A stretch of DNA of 64,000 nt from Pseudobdellovibrionaceae bacterium. Its GTDB lineage: Bacteria > Bdellovibrionota > Bdellovibrionia > Bdellovibrionales > Bdellovibrionaceae. Of this stretch, positions 53,870 through 64,000 are shown in pieces. The stretch is from the NCBI GenBank assembly GCA_021731025.1, contig JAKFYD010000011.1:1889-65888 (forward strand). The letters run 5' to 3'. Position numbers and translations under genes: made by a program. Below the pieces are notes generated by a model. That model worked only from the letters and a program-made list of their open reading frames with translations, ran no database searches and was not told the DNA's origin. Each line of letters opens with the position of its first letter. The first letter of the stretch is position 1.

Positions 53870-54790
53870 ATGACTCATTCCAATGTGCCTGCTGATGTTT
53901 TTGGAAGGTATTTTTTTATTTCTTTGGGTCTATTTCTTTCAGTCGTAACCATCGTGTTTCTGCTGATCAAAAAGAAAAAAGGAAATAGCCAACTCATCAA
54001 AGAAATTCTTATACGGATCTATTCTTGGTGGGCTATCAGTTTTATCTTTTTTGTGGCCTACAATTTTGATCGAGTTGGCTTCGCCGTTGTTTTTACTTTG
54101 ATAAGTTTGTTTGGCGTTCATGAAGTCTTTCGAATCCTTCGGCAAAGAATGAAATTCAGGAAAATTATTTACCTCATTTATTTTTTGATTCCTCTGCAAT
54201 ACTATTTGATTCTGAATGGCAGTGCCCATGCTTATTTAGCTTTTGTACCGATTGGTTCATTTATCATCTTGCCTTCATTCAGCATCTTCTTGCGTTCGTC
54301 AGAAAATTTCTTAAGTCAGGTTTCATCCATCCAGTGGTGTTTGATGATGACGATTTACTGTCTCAGTCATACGGTCATGCTTTCGAAATACAACAGTTCG
54401 GTGATTTTGTTGTTGTTTTTTCTGACTCAGTTGAATGACGTGGCTCAATTCACTTGGGGTAAAACTTTTGGTCGTCGAAAAATCATTCCCCATATGAGCC
54501 CGAACAAAACCTGGGAAGGACTTATCGGTGGAGCCCTCACTTTGGGAGTGGTCTCGGCCTTTTTAATGCCCATGGTTTTGCCGCTGTCTTATTTAGAAAG
54601 TTTTTTTGTGGGGCTATTTCTTTCGCCCCTGGGATTTTTTGGCGATGTTGTGTTGTCAGCCGTTAAAAGAGATTTTGGTGTGAAGGACTATGGCAGTTCT
54701 ATTCCTGGACATGGTGGTTTTATGGATCGCTTTGATAGTCTTACTTTTACGGCACCTGCTCTTTATTATTTTCTATTTTTAATCCTTTGA
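53870..54790 (+). CDS. phosphatidate cytidylyltransferase-family (CdsA-like) enzyme
   Basis: Family signature 'SAVKRDFGVKDYGSSIPGHGGFMDRFDS' near the C-terminus. Polytopic membrane protein. Confidence 0.85.
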   Translation: MTHSNVPADVFGRYFFISLGLFLSVVTIVFLLIKKKKGNSQLIKEILIRIYSWWAISFIFFVAYNFDRVGFAVVFTLISLFGVHEVFRILRQRMKFRKIIYLIYFLIPLQYYLILNGSAHAYLAFVPIGSFIILPSFSIFLRSSENFLSQVSSIQWCLMMTIYCLSHTVMLSKYNSSVILLLFFLTQLNDVAQFTWGKTFGRRKIIPHMSPNKTWEGLIGGALTLGVVSAFLMPMVLPLSYLESFFVGLFLSPLGFFGDVVLSAVKRDFGVKDYGSSIPGHGGFMDRFDSLTFTAPALYYFLFLIL

Positions 54791-55434
54791 TGGAGTGTAA
54801 AAAAATGAATGTTGTTCGTCGCCCCGTTAAATCCCGAGAGCAAGGTTGGTCAAAATCACTAGCGCAGAATCTTTACCGGATGGGTTTAAAGCCAAATTTT
54901 GTATCGGTGATGAGCTCTGTCTTTGCTGCGGGTGCGGGTTTCTGTATCTTTAAAAGTGGCCAGGGCTCGTTTTTTATTCTTCTTTCTTTGGTCTTTATTC
55001 AGATGAGATTGATCTGCAATCTCATCGATGGAATGTTGGCCATAGAGCATGGGCTTAAATCTAAAGTTGGTGAAATTTACAATGATCTTCCAGATCGCTT
55101 TTCTGACTTATTTATTATTGTTCCCTTAGGATATGCCATTGTCGAAAAAGCTTGGGCTCTGGAGCTGGCGTGGATTGCGGGAACTCTTGCCGTGTTAACG
55201 GCCTACGTGCGCATTTTGGGTGCGGTTGCGGGGGCTCCACAGTTTTTCATTGGGCCAATGGCAAAACAACATCGCATGGCTTTAATTAATTTAACGATGT
55301 TAGTGGCGTTAATTGAATACAATATGAGCTCTACCATCGTTCAATCATTTTTTTGGTGCTTAATCATTCTTGCTTTTGGTTCTTTAATAACTGTCGTGCG
55401 AAGGCTCAGAATCATCTTTAAAGCCCTCACCTAA
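54790..55434 (+). CDS. CDP-alcohol phosphatidyltransferase-family enzyme
   Basis: 'NLIDGMLAIEHGLKSKVGEIYNDLPDRFSD' matches the DG..A...G...D...D family motif, with Ile in place of the usual Arg. The ATG overlaps the upstream TGA (TGATG). Confidence 0.75.
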   Translation: MECKKMNVVRRPVKSREQGWSKSLAQNLYRMGLKPNFVSVMSSVFAAGAGFCIFKSGQGSFFILLSLVFIQMRLICNLIDGMLAIEHGLKSKVGEIYNDLPDRFSDLFIIVPLGYAIVEKAWALELAWIAGTLAVLTAYVRILGAVAGAPQFFIGPMAKQHRMALINLTMLVALIEYNMSSTIVQSFFWCLIILAFGSLITVVRRLRIIFKALT

Positions 55435-55437
55435 CTT

Positions 55438-56535
55438 TTATTCCTTTTCAAAAATATGAAATTTATAAACACCGGTGCCGTCAATTTGGTGTGCCCATGA
55501 TTCCTTTGTTGCCAATTGAGTCCAACCCTTGTGATCAATGGCAGTTGGCGCACGCATGAAAGAACGGATAACAACTCGGGAAGTTTTTTTTGTTTCAGGG
55601 TGAAGCTTCTGTAGAATCTGATTCGCAGCTTCTGTTGGCAAATACGAGATCGTGTCTGAAAGAGAGATGAACTGAAAAGGTTTGGTCGGTAAAATATCTA
55701 AAAGATTTCCAACATGATAGTGAATCTGGGTAGAAGATTTTTTACTTTCATGAAATATTTTGTCGTGGGCCTCTAAGGGAAGACCCTCTTCGTAGCGAAT
55801 TTCTCCAAGAAAAAGAATCTGCATAAAATAATTTTTTCGCACAAGTTGATTTTTGAAAATGCGTTCGAACTCTTCTTGAATAAATTGGTAAGGCGGGCGA
55901 TCTTCAGTTCGGTGATGAGCTTGCCCGCTAAAATGACCTTTGTAGAGATACTTATTAAAAACATACTCGCTAGCTAAAATTCTTAAAAATGATTTCCAAC
56001 GAAGGTGAGGCCAATGTTTTTCATAGAGGGAAATTTGTTCCCTTAAATTTTGCGCTTTGAAAAGAAACGAAAAATCACATTGAAGATAATCGCGGAAGAT
56101 AAGGCCAAGCTTTTGAAAGTGAGATTCCCAACGGCCCAACAAAATAAAACCTTGTTTTTCCCAGCCTTCCTTTCGGTCTTGCCAATAGGCTTTCGTTTCA
56201 GGTTTCAATTGAATCTTTTGAAAAATTTCCGAACGTGAATCACCAGCATCAGATCCGCCTTGAGTGGCGCCACGGTAGCCAAAGAAAAATAACCACTGTT
56301 GATAGCTCAATTGGCGCATGGCTTCGAATCTAAGCTCACAGAGGTGAATCTGTGCGGGACTCATGTCGATGATGTGCAGTTCGCGAGGATTTCGTGCGAT
56401 CAGAGGTAAACAGCGTGCCCCAGATCCAGCGATGCTAAATATGCAATCGGCTTGATTGGGAAGGAGTTCGTGTTCCACACGAGTGTCTTCGTTGGCCAGT
56501 GTGTAATTTAAATCTGAAAAATACTCTTGAGCCAT
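55438..56535 (-). CDS. BtaA-like (DUF3419) putative SAM-dependent 3-amino-3-carboxypropyl transferase
   Basis: 'YFSDLNYTLANEDTRVEHELL' and 'IFSIAGSGARCLPLIA' (SAM-binding-like). Start set at 'MAQEYF', with GGAGGAA SD, 1 nt after the upstream stop. Confidence 0.6.
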   Translation of the reverse strand: MAQEYFSDLNYTLANEDTRVEHELLPNQADCIFSIAGSGARCLPLIARNPRELHIIDMSPAQIHLCELRFEAMRQLSYQQWLFFFGYRGATQGGSDAGDSRSEIFQKIQLKPETKAYWQDRKEGWEKQGFILLGRWESHFQKLGLIFRDYLQCDFSFLFKAQNLREQISLYEKHWPHLRWKSFLRILASEYVFNKYLYKGHFSGQAHHRTEDRPPYQFIQEEFERIFKNQLVRKNYFMQILFLGEIRYEEGLPLEAHDKIFHESKKSSTQIHYHVGNLLDILPTKPFQFISLSDTISYLPTEAANQILQKLHPETKKTSRVVIRSFMRAPTAIDHKGWTQLATKESWAHQIDGTGVYKFHIFEKE

Positions 56536-56536
56536 A

Positions 56537-57625
56537 TTATTTTCCTCCTCTGAAAGATCCACTGTATTGGAATCTAAATCCAAACAAGGTTCCCCCGGTG
56601 TTTTGTTCAATAATCGATGCGTAATTAAAATTTTCGCCGTGATAATTTTGCAGCAACAGAGTTAAACCCCAGTTGCGCAGCCAGGTGTAAGTGTAAGTGG
56701 CGCTGTAAAAGACATTTGTATAATCTTTGTTAGAGAAATTCTGCCATTGGAACTCGTGGCGACCACGAGAATAAGTTGCAGATAAATATCCCACGAGCTG
56801 GCTGGAATCAGGTGAGGAAAGATTTTCGTTACTAAATCCTGTCACCTGAGGAGTGATGGTCCATTGATCCCAGAAAATATCTAATCCAAAAGTACTGAAT
56901 GCGGATCGACGGCTCAGAAGGGCATCGTTTTTTTGTTCATTAATTGTTCCACCAACTTCGATTTTTGGAACAAATTTTTCAAAAGCATAGTTGGCACTAA
57001 AGCCAAAAGTGTTTTGGCGAAGTGCGCGCGCGGCAACAAAGGAAGACTGTATGCCTCCCAAAGCCATTTTGATTCTCATTCCAGGATTCACGGCTTCTTC
57101 TTCGGCTATTTTTTCAAGAATGGGATAAGGTGCGGGGTAGGTATCCTGAGGAACCTCCCACATTGCAGCGAGATCCATCGACCATGTCGAACCAACAAAG
57201 GTAAAAACGGCACCGGTCGAATGAGCTAATTGAAATGGAAGAGGATCAATAAATAATCTTTCATAGCGGCGGGCGGTCCACACATCCAGCGAAGGGGTAA
57301 TCCAAGAGTCACTCCAGCGATTGGCTTGTCGTCCCAGTTTGAAGTAAATCGAATTCCCCGCATATTCTCCGTAGAGTTCTTGCAGATAGGCTGCGTTTTT
57401 CGAGCGCCGCCAAGTTTTCTGTTCTTCAGGGGCAAAATCAGCGTCCGCGAAACCATCTGCAAAAAATTTAAATTTTTGGGTCTGAAGGGAAAGATCTGTT
57501 TGCAGCAAAGTTCTGTTGAATGAAATTTCTTTGCCGCTGATAAGATCATAACGAGGGTTGATATTAAAGTCGATGGCCCATGCCGAATTCACTTGGACTA
57601 AAATCAGCAGGATCCAGGTTCGCAT
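56537..57625 (-). CDS. outer-membrane beta-barrel protein (unknown family)
   Basis: Signal peptide 'MRTWILLILVQVNSAWA'. Aromatic-rich alternating strands ('YSATYTYTWLRNWGLTLLLQNY', 'LFGFRFQYSG'). Abuts the LolA-like gene with no gap. Confidence 0.55.
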   Translation of the reverse strand: MRTWILLILVQVNSAWAIDFNINPRYDLISGKEISFNRTLLQTDLSLQTQKFKFFADGFADADFAPEEQKTWRRSKNAAYLQELYGEYAGNSIYFKLGRQANRWSDSWITPSLDVWTARRYERLFIDPLPFQLAHSTGAVFTFVGSTWSMDLAAMWEVPQDTYPAPYPILEKIAEEEAVNPGMRIKMALGGIQSSFVAARALRQNTFGFSANYAFEKFVPKIEVGGTINEQKNDALLSRRSAFSTFGLDIFWDQWTITPQVTGFSNENLSSPDSSQLVGYLSATYSRGRHEFQWQNFSNKDYTNVFYSATYTYTWLRNWGLTLLLQNYHGENFNYASIIEQNTGGTLFGFRFQYSGSFRGGK

Positions 57626-58315
57626 TTATTTGAGTGACTCCATATTTCTAACGCTGAAGAAAGAATCTTCAAAAGATTTTGGTGTCATACTGAGAATTTT
57701 AACCTGTGATTTTTTTTTATTTGTGTCTTCAATACGTATCAAGGTCGGCCGCACATCTCCGGCAATCTGTTTGTAATTTTCAAAGTAGGCTTTTTTCAAC
57801 AAAGTTTTTCCATTAAGCCCTAGGTATTCTGTGCGTAAAGGACGATTCGTTTTTTTATCAATCCATAGACGGATCCAAGAGTAAGTTAAATTTTCTTTGT
57901 TGGCTTTTAAGAGCAGCTGCGCCTCTTCGGGAGTTTCCTTCTCGAGTGTGGGGGTGTAGTCACCGTGCCAACGTGTTCGTGAAATATCCCCATTGGCAAC
58001 TTGACCTGACAGTTTTTGGGCCAAGGATAAGCGCATAGATCTTTTTAGGTTCGGGATATATGCTTGAAAGTCCCGGTCGAGCATCAGCATATTGCGTCCA
58101 CGGTCACGGGCTGGTGATTTGGTGACGATAATAGTTTTATCCTGACCCTTCATATAAACTTCAAATTCCATGGCATCACCATCGCCTTCAACCTCGACGT
58201 TCATCACGTAGGATTGTGCGGGATTTCTAATTTCATCAGCTTTTTTAAGAAGTGCTTCGGGATTTGTGGCTGCGTGCAGTGGCAAAGCGAACAACAGTAA
58301 AAAAACGAATTTCAT
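57626..58315 (-). CDS. LolA-like 'outer membrane lipoprotein-sorting' periplasmic protein
   Basis: Signal peptide. 'ALLKKADEIRNP...KSPARDRGRNMLMLDRDFQAYIPNLKRSMRLS' is typical of the LolA_like family found next to FtsX-type ABC exporters. Confidence 0.6.
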   Translation of the reverse strand: MKFVFLLLFALPLHAATNPEALLKKADEIRNPAQSYVMNVEVEGDGDAMEFEVYMKGQDKTIIVTKSPARDRGRNMLMLDRDFQAYIPNLKRSMRLSLAQKLSGQVANGDISRTRWHGDYTPTLEKETPEEAQLLLKANKENLTYSWIRLWIDKKTNRPLRTEYLGLNGKTLLKKAYFENYKQIAGDVRPTLIRIEDTNKKKSQVKILSMTPKSFEDSFFSVRNMESLK

Positions 58316-58353: not shown

Positions 58354-59028
58354 ATGGATTTACTTTATAAGTTAGAATCAATTCAGTACAGCTATGTTTG
58401 GAATCAACAGCAGATTTCTGTTCTAAAGGGCATTTCTTTAGACATACCCCGCGGGTCATTCACCTGTTTGGTGGGTCCGAGTGGTGTGGGAAAAACCACT
58501 CTGTTGAATTTAATGGGTGTCATTGAGAACCCGACCAAGGGCCGTTTGATTTTCTGTGATCAGTCGATTGCTGAATTGAATGAAAAAGAAAAAGAAAATA
58601 TCCGTTTAAAAAATATCGGTTTCGTTTTTCAAGCCTTCTATTTGATTCCCACGCTGACAGTGCTTGAAAACGCTTCTTACTTTCTTCCCTCATTGGGAAT
58701 GGACCGAAAAAAAGCGGATCAGTGGGCCAGCGAAATTTTAGACCTTTTAGGTTTAGCAGATCAGCGCCATAAAAAACCTCTCGAACTTTCAGGAGGTCAG
58801 CGTCAGCGGGTGGCGATCGCTCGTGCTATGGCTAAACGTCCAAAAGTTATTTTGGCTGATGAGCCAACAGCAAATTTGGATTCTGTGACTGCTGACAAAA
58901 CGATTGCGGCTTTTAAAGAATTGCAACGGGTGGAAAATACCAGTTTTATTTTTGCGACCCATGATTCTCATTTGGTGGGTTATGCAAAGAATGTTTTAAA
59001 AATGAAAGATGGATTGATTTATGAATGA
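58354..59028 (+). CDS. ABC transporter ATP-binding protein (LolD/MacB-type)
   Basis: Walker A 'GPSGVGKTT', signature 'LSGGQRQRVAIARA', Walker B 'ILADEPT'. Confidence 0.9.
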   Translation: MDLLYKLESIQYSYVWNQQQISVLKGISLDIPRGSFTCLVGPSGVGKTTLLNLMGVIENPTKGRLIFCDQSIAELNEKEKENIRLKNIGFVFQAFYLIPTLTVLENASYFLPSLGMDRKKADQWASEILDLLGLADQRHKKPLELSGGQRQRVAIARAMAKRPKVILADEPTANLDSVTADKTIAAFKELQRVENTSFIFATHDSHLVGYAKNVLKMKDGLIYE

Positions 59029-60226
59029 TCTTTTAAAACTCTCTTGGCGAAATCTTTTTCGTAATCCACGCCGAACATTGGCTAGTTTGATCACCGTGGG
59101 ACTTGGTGCTGCGGGCTTATTAATTTATCAAGGTTTTAACACGGGCATTATGAACCAGTATCGAGAAAATACAATTCACGGTCACTACGGCTATGGCCAG
59201 GTGTTTCCCAAAGGTTATCATGGAAAAGTTTTAGAAAAACCTTGGGAAGCATGGATCACTAATTGGACTGAGGTTGAAAAGCAATTGAAGTCAGTGTCTG
59301 CGATCAATGAAGTCTTTCCCCGGGTCACATTTTATTCTTTCTTAGTTAAAGGTGGAGTGACCTTAGGTGGAAAAGGCGATGGCATTATTCCTGAACGTGA
59401 GAATAAATTTTTTAATCAGCTGAACTTTATTGCGGGTGGAGATATTCAAGGTGATGATGAAGTGATTCTCGGAAAAGGTTTAGCAGAAAGTTTAGATGCT
59501 AAAGTCGGCGAAACGATTACTCTTTTATCTCAGACAATTAACGGACAATTGAATGGAGTTGATGCAAAAGTTGCTGGAGTTTTCCATATTGGAATCAAAA
59601 AAGTTGATGACACTTATTTCCGTTTAAATTTAAAAGCGGCCCAAGGTTTACTGAACACCGACCGCATCGAATCTTTTTCGCTGGATACGAAAGGGGTCGA
59701 ATACTGGGATGAAGTGGCCCAGGGTATTGTCGAAAAAAATCCTAATCTAGAGCCCATTCGATTTGAAATTTTGGATAAAGTCTACTACCAAAATTCCGTC
59801 GATTTTTTGGCCGCGCAATTTGCTTTTATTCGTTCGATCATTTTGCTGATTGTGGCTTTAGGAATTTTTAACACCATCGCAGTGGGATTGTTGGAAAGAG
59901 GAGGCGAGGTCGGAGCCTTGCGTGCGAACGGTGAAAGCCGGTCCCGTCTATTTAAGATTTTTATGTTTGAAAGTGCTTTCGTTGGTGTCCTTGGTGGAAT
60001 GTTGGGTGTGGTGATTGCTTTTATTATGTGGGGAATGTTGTCCAAAGGAATTCCCATGCCTCCGGGACCGGGGATCACTCGTCAGTATCTTATATTTCTT
60101 GAAATTAAACCTTCGCACTTGATACAGGCTTTACTCTTGCCGGCGATTGCGGCCGTTGTTTCAAGCTTGTGGCCTATCTATAAACTTTTAAGAAAAAGCA
60201 TTCCTGAATTATTACGAACGACTTGA
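59021..60226 (+). CDS. FtsX-family ABC permease (LolC/E- or MacB-like)
   Basis: N-terminal TM, ~230 aa periplasmic domain and a C-terminal 3-TM FtsX module ('ALGIFNTIAVGLLERGGEVGALRANGESR'). Overlaps the ATPase gene by 8 nt. Confidence 0.8.
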   Translation: MNDLLKLSWRNLFRNPRRTLASLITVGLGAAGLLIYQGFNTGIMNQYRENTIHGHYGYGQVFPKGYHGKVLEKPWEAWITNWTEVEKQLKSVSAINEVFPRVTFYSFLVKGGVTLGGKGDGIIPERENKFFNQLNFIAGGDIQGDDEVILGKGLAESLDAKVGETITLLSQTINGQLNGVDAKVAGVFHIGIKKVDDTYFRLNLKAAQGLLNTDRIESFSLDTKGVEYWDEVAQGIVEKNPNLEPIRFEILDKVYYQNSVDFLAAQFAFIRSIILLIVALGIFNTIAVGLLERGGEVGALRANGESRSRLFKIFMFESAFVGVLGGMLGVVIAFIMWGMLSKGIPMPPGPGITRQYLIFLEIKPSHLIQALLLPAIAAVVSSLWPIYKLLRKSIPELLRTT

Positions 60227-62350
60227 TCGACGGGATAAAGCTAACTCTCGAGTCAGTGCAATCTCGCGGTCAGTGAGTGTTCCCATATGACCTTGAATGC
60301 TAGCAAGTTTAACACCGTGTTTTTGAGAGAGCTTGTAAATTTCTTTTACCTTTGTCCATTCGATATCTCGACCCATGGTGAAGCTTTCATGCTTTTCTTC
60401 CAGAGCTAAAACAGTGGTTTCTGCAAGACAGGCGTAGACGGTATTGCCCGGCAAACCAATATCGCAGGTCAACTGATAGGGACCAGGAAGAACAAGCTCG
60501 CCCGATTCCATAATGATAACATCGGGGCGTTTCTTGGCATCTTCCTTTGTAAAATCTAAAGGTCGCGAGCAGTCGCAGACAACACAACCTGGTTTTAAGC
60601 GCATCACATCGATGATTTTTTGATCGAAGGCCGAGGTTGCGGTAACTAAGACATCAGCCATCGACGCAAACTCATTCGCATCGGTACAACAAATAATTTC
60701 GCAATGAGGAGCCATTTTTTGCAATTCGGCTTTTAACTCTTGGAGCTTTTCGAGGCGTGGCGAAACTAAAATCAATTTATTAAAAACTAAGCTCAATAGT
60801 TTTGCGGAAACTTTTCCGATCGAACCCGAAGCGCCAATCACCATGGCTGTGCCAATAGCTTTTCCTGTTTGAGAGTCCGTTTTAAGAAGGCGCATTTTCT
60901 GAACGACATCGTAGAGTCCCCACAATGTGGCTGAGGCGCTTAAACTATTTCCGGTGGTGACGGGCAATGGAGAATTTTTATTGATCGTCACACCAGAGTC
61001 GCCGACAACTTTGGTGTAGGCACCAAGACCAATAATCTGAGCCCCACGTGCAGCGGCATCGTTACAGCACTTTTGAATTTGGGCATAGGTGATTTCGGGA
61101 TCCATGGATTTTAAAACTTTGGGTGTTGACCATAAAGCATAAATAATTCCATTGACCTCTTTGCCTGTGGCTGGCGAAACGACATTTTTAACATGACCCA
61201 AGATGAGCGGGGGTAAACGGGAAATTGTTTTATCAACTTCATCGTTCCATTGCTTTGGAAGGGCACGAATCATTTGACCCACAACGGGAACTCTTTCGAA
61301 GTCCCGGTGGGATAAAGCGTGAACAACAAAGGCAAAATCAGGTGTCGTTTCACGAATGATGCGATTTTTAATTTTGTAAAAGGTGCGGGCGGCTTTGACC
61401 TGCATGGAATCTTTACGTGGTAAAGTGTATTTGCGCACGATAGACATGGTCTCTGGCGAAATTTTCAAAAAATCTTTCCACTCTTCAAAAGAGAGACTGG
61501 CTTCCATCTTATGTGCTAGCCGAAAAGCTGCTTCCAGGACGCTGTAGTTCATATAATGACTGAATTGGTAAGCACTGGGAAAAAGATTATGGATAGCTTT
61601 GAACTCATATCTTTTTAAATATTTTTCGATTCCAATATGATGAGACCAAACGATAAGCTCTTTATCTTTAAAAATTTTACTGACGTCATTGAAGTAAGCG
61701 ATGTGAGCCAAATCAGCTACAATGTAGCGAGAAGATTTTATTTGGGATGCCAGAACTTTTTGGGTCATCTCTTGAAGTGGGAGGTTCAGGTTGGAAGTAC
61801 CACCTTTGATTTTCTTCACCGTTGCAATATTTAAACCTGTTTTGGCCAAAGTCATTAAGCCCAAGAAGGGTTTTAAAACTAAGGGTATACCCAAAATAGA
61901 ATAGAGGTCTCCAAATGAAACTTGAGCCTCGGGTGTATTTCGAATGAGCTCTTCCAGCTCGGTGTTTAAAAGAACCGTTGGGAAAAAAAATCCGTCTTTG
62001 GCTACTAATTTTTTTGTTTCCAAGGCCGACATTAAATTTTTAATGTTTAGAATTTCTCTTAAGCCAGTTCCATCACAAAGAGGGACAGAAGAAGGTGTAT
62101 TCATAATTTCAAAATACTGACGATGAACAAAGCTTTGATTCCCAAGACAAATAGGTGGCGGCAAGGAGACCAGAGCAAAAGCATCCACTTCACTGCGCAA
62201 ATTTCCGATGAGGGTTTTGACGGCATCTACAGAATAATTAGCGCCGTAGCGTTGCACTTGAAAGGTGAACCCTTTGTACTGAAATTCATAGCTTGTATCC
62301 CAATGGGAATAACCAAAGCTAATTTCGGCGATGCGATAGGTATTTTTCAT
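60212..62350 (-). CDS. two-domain protein: unknown ~335 aa N-terminal domain fused to a long-chain acyl-ACP reductase (AAR)-like NAD(P)-binding domain
   Basis: The C-terminal half is colinear with cyanobacterial AAR as I recall it: 'FAFVVHALS', 'GLGAYTKV', 'TTGNSLSAS', 'VIGASGSIGK', 'VYACLAETTVLALEE' (Cys at nt 60428-60430) and 'FTMGRDIEW'. Start at ATG 62350 (GGAG upstream); the ORF opens at 62374. Confidence 0.6.
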   Translation of the reverse strand: MKNTYRIAEISFGYSHWDTSYEFQYKGFTFQVQRYGANYSVDAVKTLIGNLRSEVDAFALVSLPPPICLGNQSFVHRQYFEIMNTPSSVPLCDGTGLREILNIKNLMSALETKKLVAKDGFFFPTVLLNTELEELIRNTPEAQVSFGDLYSILGIPLVLKPFLGLMTLAKTGLNIATVKKIKGGTSNLNLPLQEMTQKVLASQIKSSRYIVADLAHIAYFNDVSKIFKDKELIVWSHHIGIEKYLKRYEFKAIHNLFPSAYQFSHYMNYSVLEAAFRLAHKMEASLSFEEWKDFLKISPETMSIVRKYTLPRKDSMQVKAARTFYKIKNRIIRETTPDFAFVVHALSHRDFERVPVVGQMIRALPKQWNDEVDKTISRLPPLILGHVKNVVSPATGKEVNGIIYALWSTPKVLKSMDPEITYAQIQKCCNDAAARGAQIIGLGAYTKVVGDSGVTINKNSPLPVTTGNSLSASATLWGLYDVVQKMRLLKTDSQTGKAIGTAMVIGASGSIGKVSAKLLSLVFNKLILVSPRLEKLQELKAELQKMAPHCEIICCTDANEFASMADVLVTATSAFDQKIIDVMRLKPGCVVCDCSRPLDFTKEDAKKRPDVIIMESGELVLPGPYQLTCDIGLPGNTVYACLAETTVLALEEKHESFTMGRDIEWTKVKEIYKLSQKHGVKLASIQGHMGTLTDREIALTRELALSRRSSRS

Positions 62351-63344
62351 ATCCACTCCAAAAAGCTTTTTCATATTCCATAAATTCAGGGCACCAGTTC
62401 TGGCCTAAAATCTTTCGCGTATCTTCACTGTTATATCGGGGAAGTTGCAGAGCATAGCGAAGCTGCTCTTCAGGAAAGCCTAAAGCATATTGACTTAACT
62501 TGGTCACAATCGCTTGGGGAATTTTACGAACAAGAACAAGTCGAGAATGACGAATTTGAAAGTGTCTTAAAGTTGAAAGATAGAGGTCTTCCACCTTAAG
62601 TCCTTCTTTGGGAACTATATGAAAGCTCTTGTATCCCTGTTCTGAAGATTCGATGGCCCATTTTGTTAAGTTCACTAAAGCTTCAGCGGCCTTGTCGACA
62701 GGAACGAGAGGCAAGTGCACATCGCGATTACCGGGAACGGGCAATGGGAGTTTCCAGGCCTCGATAAATTTTTTGAGTCGAGAAAAAACATCAGCTGTAT
62801 GATAAGGACCATCAATTCGAGAGATCTTTCCATTGGTGGAATCGCCAACTAAAATTCCTAAACGTAAATTGATTTTAAGACGCAATGGACCTAACCAATT
62901 TAAAATTTGTTGTTCAGCGAGAGCTTTGCTTTCCGCATAAGGATCGTGAAATTTGCGAGAAAAATCGATCTCGTAAGGATTAACTTCGGCGTGAGACAAA
63001 TTTGTTGCAGCAGCTATGGAGCTTGTATTCACAAAGACAGGAATTTTGAGTAAAGAAGCAATTCGTAAGGCGGTGCCTGTGCCAGTGACATTGTTCATGA
63101 GGACATCTTCACGTGAGGCCGACAGATCATAAAGGCCTGCAAGATGCAGAAAGGCATCGTAATTTTTTTCGGAAAGTTCACTTAAGTTTATTCCACCATC
63201 CCACTTTGTCAAATCTCCAGTGACGTCAGCCTTTGGTGAGCGAGAAATAACATCGATATCAGCCTCGTTATGAAACAACTCTTGAACGACTTTTCCTAAA
63301 AATCCGGTCCCGCCGGTCATAAGGATTTTGTAAGTTCTTTTCAT
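62319..63344 (-). CDS. extended SDR / NAD-dependent epimerase-dehydratase-type reductase (thioester-reductase-like)
   Basis: 'ILMTGGTGFLGKVV' Rossmann motif and 'YAESK' catalytic YxxxK. 341 aa. Confidence 0.75.
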   Translation of the reverse strand: MKRTYKILMTGGTGFLGKVVQELFHNEADIDVISRSPKADVTGDLTKWDGGINLSELSEKNYDAFLHLAGLYDLSASREDVLMNNVTGTGTALRIASLLKIPVFVNTSSIAAATNLSHAEVNPYEIDFSRKFHDPYAESKALAEQQILNWLGPLRLKINLRLGILVGDSTNGKISRIDGPYHTADVFSRLKKFIEAWKLPLPVPGNRDVHLPLVPVDKAAEALVNLTKWAIESSEQGYKSFHIVPKEGLKVEDLYLSTLRHFQIRHSRLVLVRKIPQAIVTKLSQYALGFPEEQLRYALQLPRYNSEDTRKILGQNWCPEFMEYEKAFWSGYEKYLSHRRN

Positions 63345-64000
63345 TCACGCACCATGATGGTTAAGGCTTGAGGAAGACAACGAATTGAAATTTCATCAGC
63401 TTCGCGAAATAAAATTTCGCCGTCGCCGAAGAAGGTGATTTTTCTTTGAGGGTTTTTTGAGCGCAATGTCATTTCTGGGACTTCGTACGATTTAACAATA
63501 TCACTCTCGGCGAGATTCCCTTGATAGACCTTTGCAACTTCCATCAACTGGGACAATCGTGTGGTGCTTTCGATAAGAAGCAAATTGATCAAACCATCAT
63601 TATTTGAAGTGTAAGGAGCCGTTAAAAAGTTTTTTCCCAAGTAGGGTTGGTTGTTGATCAGAATAAAGGGAGCAATGGTTGTTATTTTTTTTCCATCTTT
63701 GAATTCCAAATCAAGATGCCAGCCGCTTTGTTCCCAAACTCTCAGTGTCTCAAGCAACATCGCAATGTAAACAAATGATCCCAATTTTCTCACGATTCCG
63801 TAAGAAACCTGGGAAGCGATTTGTGCGAAGGAAGATCTATTTTGATCGGCTGATAAATTCTGCAGAAACGAACGAAGTTTGTTAGCTTTATCCGCGGTCT
63901 CTGCAGGAACTCCTAAGCCCCCGTTCGTGAGCATGTATTTTTTGGTAGTTCCTGAGGTGACCTCGATGATATCAATCTTTTTCTCCTTACCTTCCAGGAT
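63341..64000 (-). CDS. DAG-kinase/YegS/LCB5-family lipid kinase, C-terminal part (5' end beyond the window)
   Basis: The frame stays open to nt 64000 ('ILEGKEKKIDIIEVTSGTTKKYMLTNGGLGVPAETA...'). This matches the 'vD.g.vn..yF.n.agiGfda' region of DAGK-family accessory domains. 4 nt ATGA overlap with the SDR gene. Confidence 0.55.
   Translation of the reverse strand: MLEGKEKKIDIIEVTSGTTKKYMLTNGGLGVPAETADKANKLRSFLQNLSADQNRSSFAQIASQVSYGIVRKLGSFVYIAMLLETLRVWEQSGWHLDLEFKDGKKITTIAPFILINNQPYLGKNFLTAPYTSNNDGLINLLLIESTTRLSQLMEVAKVYQGNLAESDIVKSYEVPEMTLRSKNPQRKITFFGDGEILFREADEISIRCLPQALTIMVRE

Follow-up and report, generated by a model that had tools for sequence, protein, structure and literature searches.

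A BtaA-family DUF3419 protein in a conserved gene cluster of Bdellovibrionota and its possible place in a new lipid pathway

The DUF3419 gene and its operon

The DNA studied here is a stretch of 64,000 nucleotides (the window) from a Pseudobdellovibrionaceae bacterium (assembly GCA_021731025.1, contig JAKFYD010000011.1, positions 1,889 to 65,888), and the gene in question encodes a protein of the DUF3419 family, to which BtaA belongs. In the synthesis of diacylglyceryl trimethylhomoserine (DGTS), BtaA transfers the aminocarboxypropyl group of S-adenosylmethionine (SAM) and BtaB then methylates the amine of that group (PMC3972451); this BtaA/BtaB pathway is known from Rhodobacter sphaeroides and Sinorhizobium meliloti (Klug and Benning 2001, via PMC3972451), and the characterized DUF3419 members are all aminocarboxypropyl transferases (PMC3972451). 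The window gene has no BtaB partner and is instead part of a conserved supercluster of lipid-type enzymes and exporter genes. It lies in the following immediate context:

55438..56535, minus strand: predicted SAM-dependent transferase of the DUF3419/BtaA family (PF11899), 365 aa, without signal peptide, from a Bdellovibrionota-specific branch
56537..57625, minus strand: porin-like outer-membrane beta-barrel, 362 aa, about 18 strands, with signal peptide (AlphaFold2 and Foldseek; no Pfam family)
57626..58315, minus strand: LolA-like periplasmic carrier (PF17131, TP_0789-like; E = 7e-35)
58354..59028, plus strand: LolD/DevA-like ATPase of an ATP-binding cassette (ABC) transporter, divergent from the LolA-like gene (PF00005, E = 4e-35), conserved in the cluster
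59021..60226, plus strand: MacB/LolCE-type permease with MacB_PCD and FtsX domains (PF12704 and PF02687), conserved in the cluster

The DUF3419 reading frame is intact and runs for 365 codons from an ATG at 56535 to a TAA at 55438-55440. A longer frame opening with a TTG at 56610 was rejected because the homologues share the methionine at 56535 as their start. Membership in the DUF3419/BtaA family, proposed in a first-pass annotation of the window, was borne out by profile search, as PF11899 covers the protein end to end (profile positions 3-385 of 385, E = 1.2e-59, 203 bits for a cut-off of 28); the NCBIfam scan returned no model for this protein and none for the canonical BtaA of a relative, G025, discussed below. 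The source genome (3.49 Mb, 99.95% complete) has a single DUF3419 copy. Its closest homologues include Bdellovibrio bacteriovorus proteins with 66% identity, and JGI labels its relatives as SAM:diacylglycerol aminocarboxypropyl transferase. The AlphaFold2 model is confident (pLDDT 89.4, pTM 0.88); in it, a helical insert of ~200 residues interrupts the Rossmann core. The PDB was searched by sequence, using both the protein itself and a profile, and nothing usable came up. Foldseek retrieved weak methyltransferase neighbours and a match, local in extent, to nocardicin aminocarboxypropyl transferase; the structural search did not settle the chemistry. The best structural neighbour is an uncharacterized protein from Leptospira interrogans (PDB 6ulo, E = 7e-4, TM ~0.3). 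The protein is a cytoplasmic SAM-fold member of a Bdellovibrionota-specific DUF3419/BtaA branch, in which the glycine-rich motif I and the acidic residue after beta2 of the class I scaffold can be recognized and SAM binding is predicted.

The first-pass annotation had made this gene the last of an operon with the LolA-like and barrel genes, and the arrangement holds: the LolA-like and barrel genes are separated by 0 nt, the barrel and DUF3419 genes by 1 nt, and the order of the three is fixed in ~45 Bdellovibrionaceae and Pseudobdellovibrionaceae loci. Judging from this spacing and conserved order the three genes are probably co-transcribed; a scan for promoters and terminators yielded counts no higher than in shuffled sequence. 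One detail has to be corrected, since the Shine-Dalgarno motif GGAGGAA had been placed 1 nt after the stop codon of the barrel gene. The junction reads ...AGA GGA GGA AAA TAA T ATG on the coding strand, so that the motif falls within the last barrel codons, ahead of the stop, and what follows the stop by 1 nt is the ATG.

The barrel protein, for which neither Pfam nor NCBIfam offers a match, was modelled by AlphaFold2 from a 28-sequence alignment as an all-beta structure of ~18 strands (pLDDT 85.5, pTM 0.80). The top PDB matches of this model in Foldseek are MOMP and OccAB/OprD porins (5ldv, 5dl8, 3szv; E = 2e-11, TM 0.55-0.63) at a sequence identity of 7-13%, that is, a membership by fold and not by family. 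Together with the signal peptide, these matches uphold the earlier call of an outer-membrane barrel. Its 51 homologues are all placed between a LolA-like gene and a DUF3419 gene. The most conserved residues, R103, W104, S105, W108, P111, S112 and D114, are situated in a long loop (~98-135) of low model confidence, which may serve to constrict or gate the barrel from within. In the sample used for presence and absence, 41 genomes made up of the source genome and 40 relatives, the barrel occurs in only five. It was considered as an obligatory part of the system and dropped: it is accessory, because a complete Bdellovibrio genome that has the DUF3419 gene has no barrel homologue.

The LolA-like gene is linked to DUF3419 across most Bdellovibrionota lineages. 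Its product matches PF17131 with 121 bits (cut-off 30) and carries an N-terminal signal peptide without a lipobox cysteine; against the NCBIfam models LolA1 and LolA3 it scores 17 bits, below their cut-offs of 83-100. Likewise, the NCBIfam models nearest to the ATPase are LolD (207 bits, cut-off 308) and DevA (E = 2e-52), both below cut-off, and the one nearest to the permease is lolCE (93 bits, cut-off 362). By these equivalog cut-offs the exporter genes fail as true LolA/LolCDE.

A deep DUF3419 branch without BtaB

The absence of a BtaB-like methyltransferase from the window, remarked upon at first pass, was confirmed and extends to the whole genome. A BtaB profile built from 120 proteins, which scores 310-419 bits on its members, reaches a maximum of 36.6 bits in the 99.95% complete source genome, and this top match is UbiE/MenG (TIGR01934, 245 bits); the btaB elsewhere in the genome that would have explained the gene by ordinary DGTS production was thus searched for and not found. 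Nor was a BtaB neighbour seen next to any DUF3419 gene of this branch in the ~90 loci examined.

A relative from the same order, G025, does have overlapping btaA and btaB genes (locus L013, G025:C8, 8351-10251, minus strand; 375 bits for DUF3419 and 381 bits for the BtaB-family methyltransferase). The BtaA partner is a class I methyltransferase of 240 aa encoded by a gene that overlaps the DUF3419 gene, and the operon can be considered genuine because JGI names the homologues of this partner (45-68% identity) SAM:diacylglycerolhomoserine N-methyltransferase. Ordinary DGTS is thus a predicted product in part of this order.

The window protein shares 23% identity with the G025 BtaA. In a maximum-likelihood tree the Bdellovibrionota sequences form a monophyletic branch, hereafter BD (support 100/100, stem of 1.52 changes per site), and the canonical BtaA, which has a long branch of its own, clusters with a further, widely distributed branch, W (100/98). 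The tree was midpoint-rooted and its canonical anchor is the single G025 operon sequence, so its deep order is provisional. Given the low identity and the separate, fully supported clade, the window gene is not an orthologue of BtaA left without its partner but a member of a separate deep branch. Residues common to BD, W and, for most of them, canonical BtaA are Y11, E16, D17, G39, D57, Q62, G86, G134, N235, G244, D294 and Y357; G39, D57 and Q62 are kept across all three branches, and in our reading of the alignment G39 is the motif I glycine and D57 the acidic residue after beta2 of the class I SAM fold.

The DUF3419 supercluster

Profile hidden Markov models (HMMs) built from the window genes and from the Pfam-annotated B. 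bacteriovorus locus were used to label the open reading frames of 93 loci. In these loci the DUF3419 gene is a constant member of a supercluster of ~13 genes over ~16 kb. The supercluster of the source genome occupies contig C10:57326-72950, part of it past the end of the window, where the scan with the cluster HMMs recovered a dikinase, a UbiA-family protein, a fatty-acid ligase fused to a hydrolase and a formyltransferase (C10:66227-72950). Its other members with established limits are:

60212..62374, minus strand: two-domain thioester reductase resembling acyl-ACP reductase (AAR) and the N-terminal part of PigE, 720 aa, conserved beside the two genes that follow
62319..63344, minus strand: short-chain dehydrogenase/reductase (SDR) of the NAD_binding_4/epimerase type, similar to fatty-acyl reductases (PF07993, E = 2e-17), conserved
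63341..64000, minus strand: lipid kinase of the DAGK_cat/YegS_C type, truncated at the end of the window (PF19279; the full-length orthologue has DAGK_cat and YegS_C)
C10:66227-68911 (past the window), minus strand: Rph/PigC-like dikinase
C10:72171-72950 (past the window), minus strand: formyltransferase

Along the minus strand the order is formyltransferase, hydrolase-ligase, UbiA, dikinase, kinase, SDR and reductase, followed by the divergent ABC genes and the LolA-like/barrel/DUF3419 operon. Three modules can be distinguished. Module (a) comprises the DAGK_cat/YegS_C kinase, the NAD_binding_4 SDR and the AAR/PigE-N-like two-domain reductase; the NCBIfam matches of the latter to the N-terminal part of PigE (E = 4.5e-48) and to acyl-ACP reductase (E = 3e-15) are both below cut-off. 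Module (b) consists of the MacB-type ABC transporter (ATPase and MacB_PCD/FtsX permease) and the LolA-like protein, to which the barrel is added in Bdellovibrionaceae and Pseudobdellovibrionaceae. In module (c), a PPDK_N/Rph/PEP-utilizers dikinase of ~893 aa, assigned by NCBIfam to NF004881 and resembling PigC, RedH and Rph, is accompanied by a small N-acylating enzyme, a UbiA-family protein and an ANL ligase. Fatty-acid CoA ligases, and not those of the amino-acid type, are nearest to this ligase, which often occurs as a fusion with an alpha/beta hydrolase.

In the ~90 loci from Bdellovibrionaceae, Pseudobdellovibrionaceae, Bacteriovoracaceae, Bacteriovorax and Silvanigrella-like genomes, DUF3419 almost always occurs with all three modules. 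This membership is kept despite rearrangements between lineages: Bacteriovoracaceae display the order ligase-dikinase-DUF3419, Silvanigrella-like genomes kinase-reductase-DUF3419-LolA, and B. bacteriovorus holds the whole cluster on one stretch. In the latter species, two genes of unknown function precede the ABC transporter; in the source genome the orthologues of these two genes (248 and 178 aa) are found at C5:22219-25338 beside a second ANL ligase, and a part of the system seems to have split off to another contig. No paper was found on this cluster or on the Bdellovibrio DUF3419. The gene thus puts a BtaA-family member into a pathway context new for the family. The supercluster as a whole is apparently undescribed and may prove to be a new pathway.

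Distribution of the cluster in Bdellovibrionota

A search of 1.84 billion representative sequences returned 129 at E < 1e-30, the best of them all ~360 aa long; on its own, the DUF3419 protein draws matches from over 1,100 representatives at 50% identity. Species genomes were scanned with an alignment of 15 sequences as the query, and 154 loci were detected, nearly all in Bdellovibrionaceae, Pseudobdellovibrionaceae, Bacteriovoracaceae, Halobacteriovorax, Bacteriovorax stolpii, Oligoflexia and Silvanigrellaceae. By these matches, the BD branch is almost confined to Bdellovibrionota. In the 41-genome sample, nine genomes have a non-canonical DUF3419, and every one of them has an orthologue of the cluster dikinase (>730 bits). 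Of the 31 genomes that lack DUF3419 altogether, only a single one has this dikinase, a 72%-complete assembly.

One metagenome-assembled genome of Bdellovibrionales has a different arrangement (JADJOV010000023.1, loci L024 and L054): its DUF3419 (59% identical) is located away from the cluster, beside YjeF_N/Carb_kinase genes, with only a 249-aa barrel remnant ~5 kb upstream, an arrangement that suggests decay or rearrangement of the cluster.

The convergent CdsA/CDP-alcohol-transferase pair

Two plus-strand genes converge on the DUF3419 gene:

53870..54790, plus strand: CdsA-like gene (PF01148, E = 2e-59)
54787..55434, plus strand: CDP-alcohol-transferase-like gene (nearest NCBIfam model archaetidylinositol-phosphate synthase, 76 bits, below cut-off)

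The pair is translationally coupled and ends 3 nt from the DUF3419 stop. The first-pass annotation had described these genes correctly and had taken them as supporting context, a role that does not stand. Among the labelled loci they adjoin DUF3419 in the source genome only. The CDP-alcohol transferase occurs in five of the 41 genomes, the source included, and in neither of the two genomes of the same genus; outside the source it is found in four genomes, of which three are without DUF3419 and one (G021) has both genes ~0.9 Mb apart. The source genome has two further CdsA homologues, which makes the window gene a third paralogue. Being neither conserved nor correlated with DUF3419, the pair was dropped as a candidate part of the pathway and is an incidental neighbour.

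A related cassette in other phyla

In another relative, G027, a DUF3419 gene of the W branch adjoins UbiA, dikinase, ligases and a protein similar to HMG-CoA reductase (HMGR). The DUF3419 protein of G027 has 1,922 homologues at E < 1e-10, which belong to Myxococcota, Verrucomicrobiota, Acidobacteriota, Cyanobacteria, Alphaproteobacteria and other groups. The order is HMGR-like, UbiA, dikinase, DUF3419, two unknown genes and ligase in Pelagicoccus (L106), and HMGR-like, UbiA, dikinase, GNAT and DUF3419 in Trichocoleus (L107); a third contig (L108) has the cassette plus a MacB-type ABC transporter. The HMMs derived from Bdellovibrionota score 126-1151 bits on the UbiA, dikinase, ligase and GNAT partners of the other phyla. 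By these scores, a UbiA/dikinase/ligase/GNAT core is kept with the W branch in Verrucomicrobiota and Cyanobacteria. No description of this cassette was found in the literature searched, and the FcrA paper (PMC11948995) says nothing of such neighbours.

In G027 the HMGR-like protein is an 804-aa fusion of an HMG-CoA-reductase domain and an APH-type phosphotransferase domain (L018, G027:C1, 11533-13947, plus strand), and its gene adjoins the W-branch DUF3419, UbiA, an Rph-like dikinase and a fusion of an ANL ligase and a carrier protein.

A possible pathway and its alternatives

The N-acylating enzymes of module (c) provide a clue to the chemistry. Among the loci that have both dikinase and UbiA, 16 contain a Formyl_trans_N protein, 15 a GNAT-type protein, none contains both and five contain neither; the last group includes some loci that end at the ligase, so that the gene may lie beyond the fetched DNA. 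The source genome is of the formyltransferase type. The two enzymes occupy different slots (loci L015-L101), with the formyltransferase before the hydrolase-fused ligase and the GNAT after the dikinase. Formyltransferases and GNATs both acylate amines. Since such enzymes are present, the ligase is of the fatty-acid type and no aminotransferase or sugar enzyme was found in the cluster, the most economical source of the amine would be the aminocarboxypropyl group of SAM, delivered by the DUF3419 enzyme.

One pathway would accommodate these genes. An activated fatty acid would be reduced by the reductases to the aldehyde or the alcohol, from which the kinase, dikinase and UbiA steps would produce a lipid acceptor other than diacylglycerol. 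The DUF3419 enzyme would then, as BtaA does, transfer the 3-amino-3-carboxypropyl (homoserine) group of SAM to a lipid hydroxyl with release of methylthioadenosine. The new alpha-amino group, which BtaB trimethylates in the known pathway, would be capped by N-formylation in the source genome or by GNAT acylation in sister lineages. The MacB-type pump would finally extract the lipid from the inner membrane and pass it to the LolA-like carrier, for delivery into or through the outer membrane by way of the barrel where there is one. That a SAM-derived homoserine-type group is transferred to a fatty-alcohol-derived lipid, N-formylated in place of N-methylated and exported by a Lol-like route is a proposal to which we give an even chance. 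The first-pass annotation had already suggested something other than ordinary DGTS, a view that is now better supported, although it saw neither the separate branch nor the larger cluster running off the window; an unmethylated homoserine-type lipid on a non-diacylglycerol acceptor and bound for the outer membrane is the best hypothesis at hand, and one that we infer. Much firmer than any mechanism is the conclusion that the gene does not make DGTS, is without BtaB and belongs to a conserved lipid cluster.

The export part of the proposal is favoured by the combination of permease and LolA-like protein, which mirrors LolCDE-LolA, and by the recognized cluster genes, among which there is no membrane-fusion protein. 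Several points weigh against the proposed pathway. The sequence does not distinguish aminocarboxypropyl from methyl transfer, and the PDB sequence searches and Foldseek gave the DUF3419 model no close solved structure. The BD branch has fixed substitutions relative to canonical BtaA and W (N15 for W, turning 'WED' into 'NED', L197/Y198 for G/R and S297 for E/D), and its motif I reads 'G-S-G-x-R' for the otherwise fixed 'S-A-G-x-N' (G37/R41 for S/N); because these positions are otherwise fixed, the chemistry or the acceptor of the branch may have changed. No lipid product is known, the roles assigned to UbiA, dikinase and kinase are guesses, the putative co-transcription is deduced from spacing and gene order, and the barrel is missing in some genomes that bear DUF3419. 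Moreover, the system is patchy, and because about a quarter of the relatives carry it the cluster is accessory.

The main alternative is that the DUF3419 protein adds no homoserine and instead methylates an intermediate of this lipid cluster, or puts SAM to another use on it. The class I methyltransferase Rossmann core, the weak structural and sequence neighbours, which are methyltransferases, and the substitutions peculiar to BD in motif I and the N-terminal 'WED' could all be understood in this manner. Yet the characterized members of the family all transfer aminocarboxypropyl groups (PMC3972451), the midpoint-rooted tree places canonical BtaA beside W, the other cassette-associated branch, and an amine-acylating enzyme is found in 31 of the 36 dikinase and UbiA loci, while no other cluster enzyme obviously supplies an amine; we thus regard this alternative as unlikely. 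A functional BtaA acting on diacylglycerol is another possibility: without BtaB, it would yield unmethylated diacylglyceryl-homoserine (DGHS) as a phosphate-sparing membrane lipid. The full-length PF11899 match, the JGI label of the relatives and the DAGK-family kinase within the cluster are in line with DGHS, but the protein is only 23% identical to a real BtaA and falls in a separate clade, a BtaB partner was never seen in the ~90 loci, the true btaA-btaB operon of G025 looks different, and DGHS synthesis has no need of the reductases, UbiA, dikinase, ligase and exporter to which the gene is tied. This makes DGHS an improbable product.

The fixed place of the gene directly after the LolA-like and barrel genes brings to mind a further scenario, in which the DUF3419 enzyme acts (for example by aminocarboxypropylation or methylation) not on a free lipid but on a protein or lipoprotein that the Lol-like exporter carries. 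MacB/LolCDE-type pumps and LolA do usually handle lipoproteins. Nevertheless, there is no conserved candidate cargo gene in the cluster, whose remaining members are all lipid-type enzymes, and in Bacteriovoracaceae and other phyla DUF3419 occurs with UbiA, dikinase and ligase without the barrel and sometimes without LolA, so that a protein cargo seems quite improbable. Finally, the gene could be a mere neighbour of unrelated function; the CdsA pair shows that adjacency at this locus can be incidental. This explanation was already disfavoured and is hardly credible, as the linkage of DUF3419 to the cluster survives many rearrangements across the phylum and beyond, and its presence and absence track the cluster dikinase.

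To return to the homoserine-type pathway, a bolder version of it would be a new class of outer-membrane lipid, with a fatty-alcohol-derived anchor (possibly ether-linked and UbiA-assembled), an N-formylated or N-acylated homoserine head derived from SAM and a Lol-like route (MacB-type pump, LolA-like carrier, porin-like barrel) that brings lipid and not lipoprotein to the cell surface; this is a tentative extension, possible but on balance doubtful. Given the distribution of the cluster over predatory lineages, such a lipid, if it exists, could matter for the predator envelope during attack. Of the large DUF3419 family only BtaA has been studied, and the Bdellovibrio-type DUF3419 genes are fixed parts of a conserved lipid-building and lipid-exporting cluster, not stray DGTS genes. 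Should the proposal be correct, the homoserine head group derived from SAM would be seen to have, besides trimethylation, a further fate in N-formylation or N-acylation, as well as a non-diacylglycerol acceptor, and a Lol-like pathway would be seen to take lipid as its cargo. B. bacteriovorus is genetically tractable and carries its cluster in one piece, which makes the hypothesis directly testable.

Comparison with known systems

The BtaA/BtaB pathway shares with the window gene the Pfam family DUF3419, the SAM-binding scaffold, a set of invariant residues and, presumably, SAM as the donor to a lipid. It differs in having a methylase as partner, where the window gene has reductases, UbiA, dikinase, ligase, formyltransferase and an exporter; relative to BtaA, the window protein has an altered motif I and 'WED' at 23% identity, and its acceptor is probably not diacylglycerol.

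The exporter recalls LolCDE-LolA-LolB in its MacB/LolC-type permease with a periplasmic domain, its LolD-like ATPase and its soluble carrier of the LolA fold. In place of LolB at the outer membrane the cluster has the porin-like barrel of ~18 strands, and its components score below the Lol cut-offs; because the exporter genes are embedded in a lipid-biosynthesis cluster, their cargo is probably a lipid. In cyanobacteria, DevBCA-HgdD exports heterocyst glycolipids, which are fatty-alcohol glycosides. The resemblance to that system lies in a DevA-like ATPase and an FtsX-type permease beside enzymes for fatty-alcohol-derived lipids of an outer layer, but DevBCA-HgdD works with the membrane-fusion protein DevB and a TolC-like duct, whereas the cluster has a LolA-like carrier and a porin-like barrel.

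Prodigiosin synthesis is called to mind by the dikinase, which resembles PigC, RedH and Rph, and by the 720-aa reductase, which resembles the N-terminal domain of PigE. Nevertheless, the cluster has no other genes of the pyrrole pathway and the scores are far below the PigC, RedH and PigE cut-offs, and the resemblance extends only to the enzyme class, namely ATP-driven oxygen activation and thioester reduction.

The same logic is seen in the cassette of the other phyla, which likewise combines a reductase, a DUF3419 protein and an amine-acylating enzyme. Its DUF3419 belongs to a branch of its own (23% identity to BD) and its reductase is HMGR-like, whereas Bdellovibrionota have the AAR-like reductase, the SDR and the DAGK-type kinase. 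The cassette also lacks the LolA-like protein and the barrel; in Bdellovibrionota a Lol-like module for export is added, and a formyltransferase often takes the place of the GNAT.

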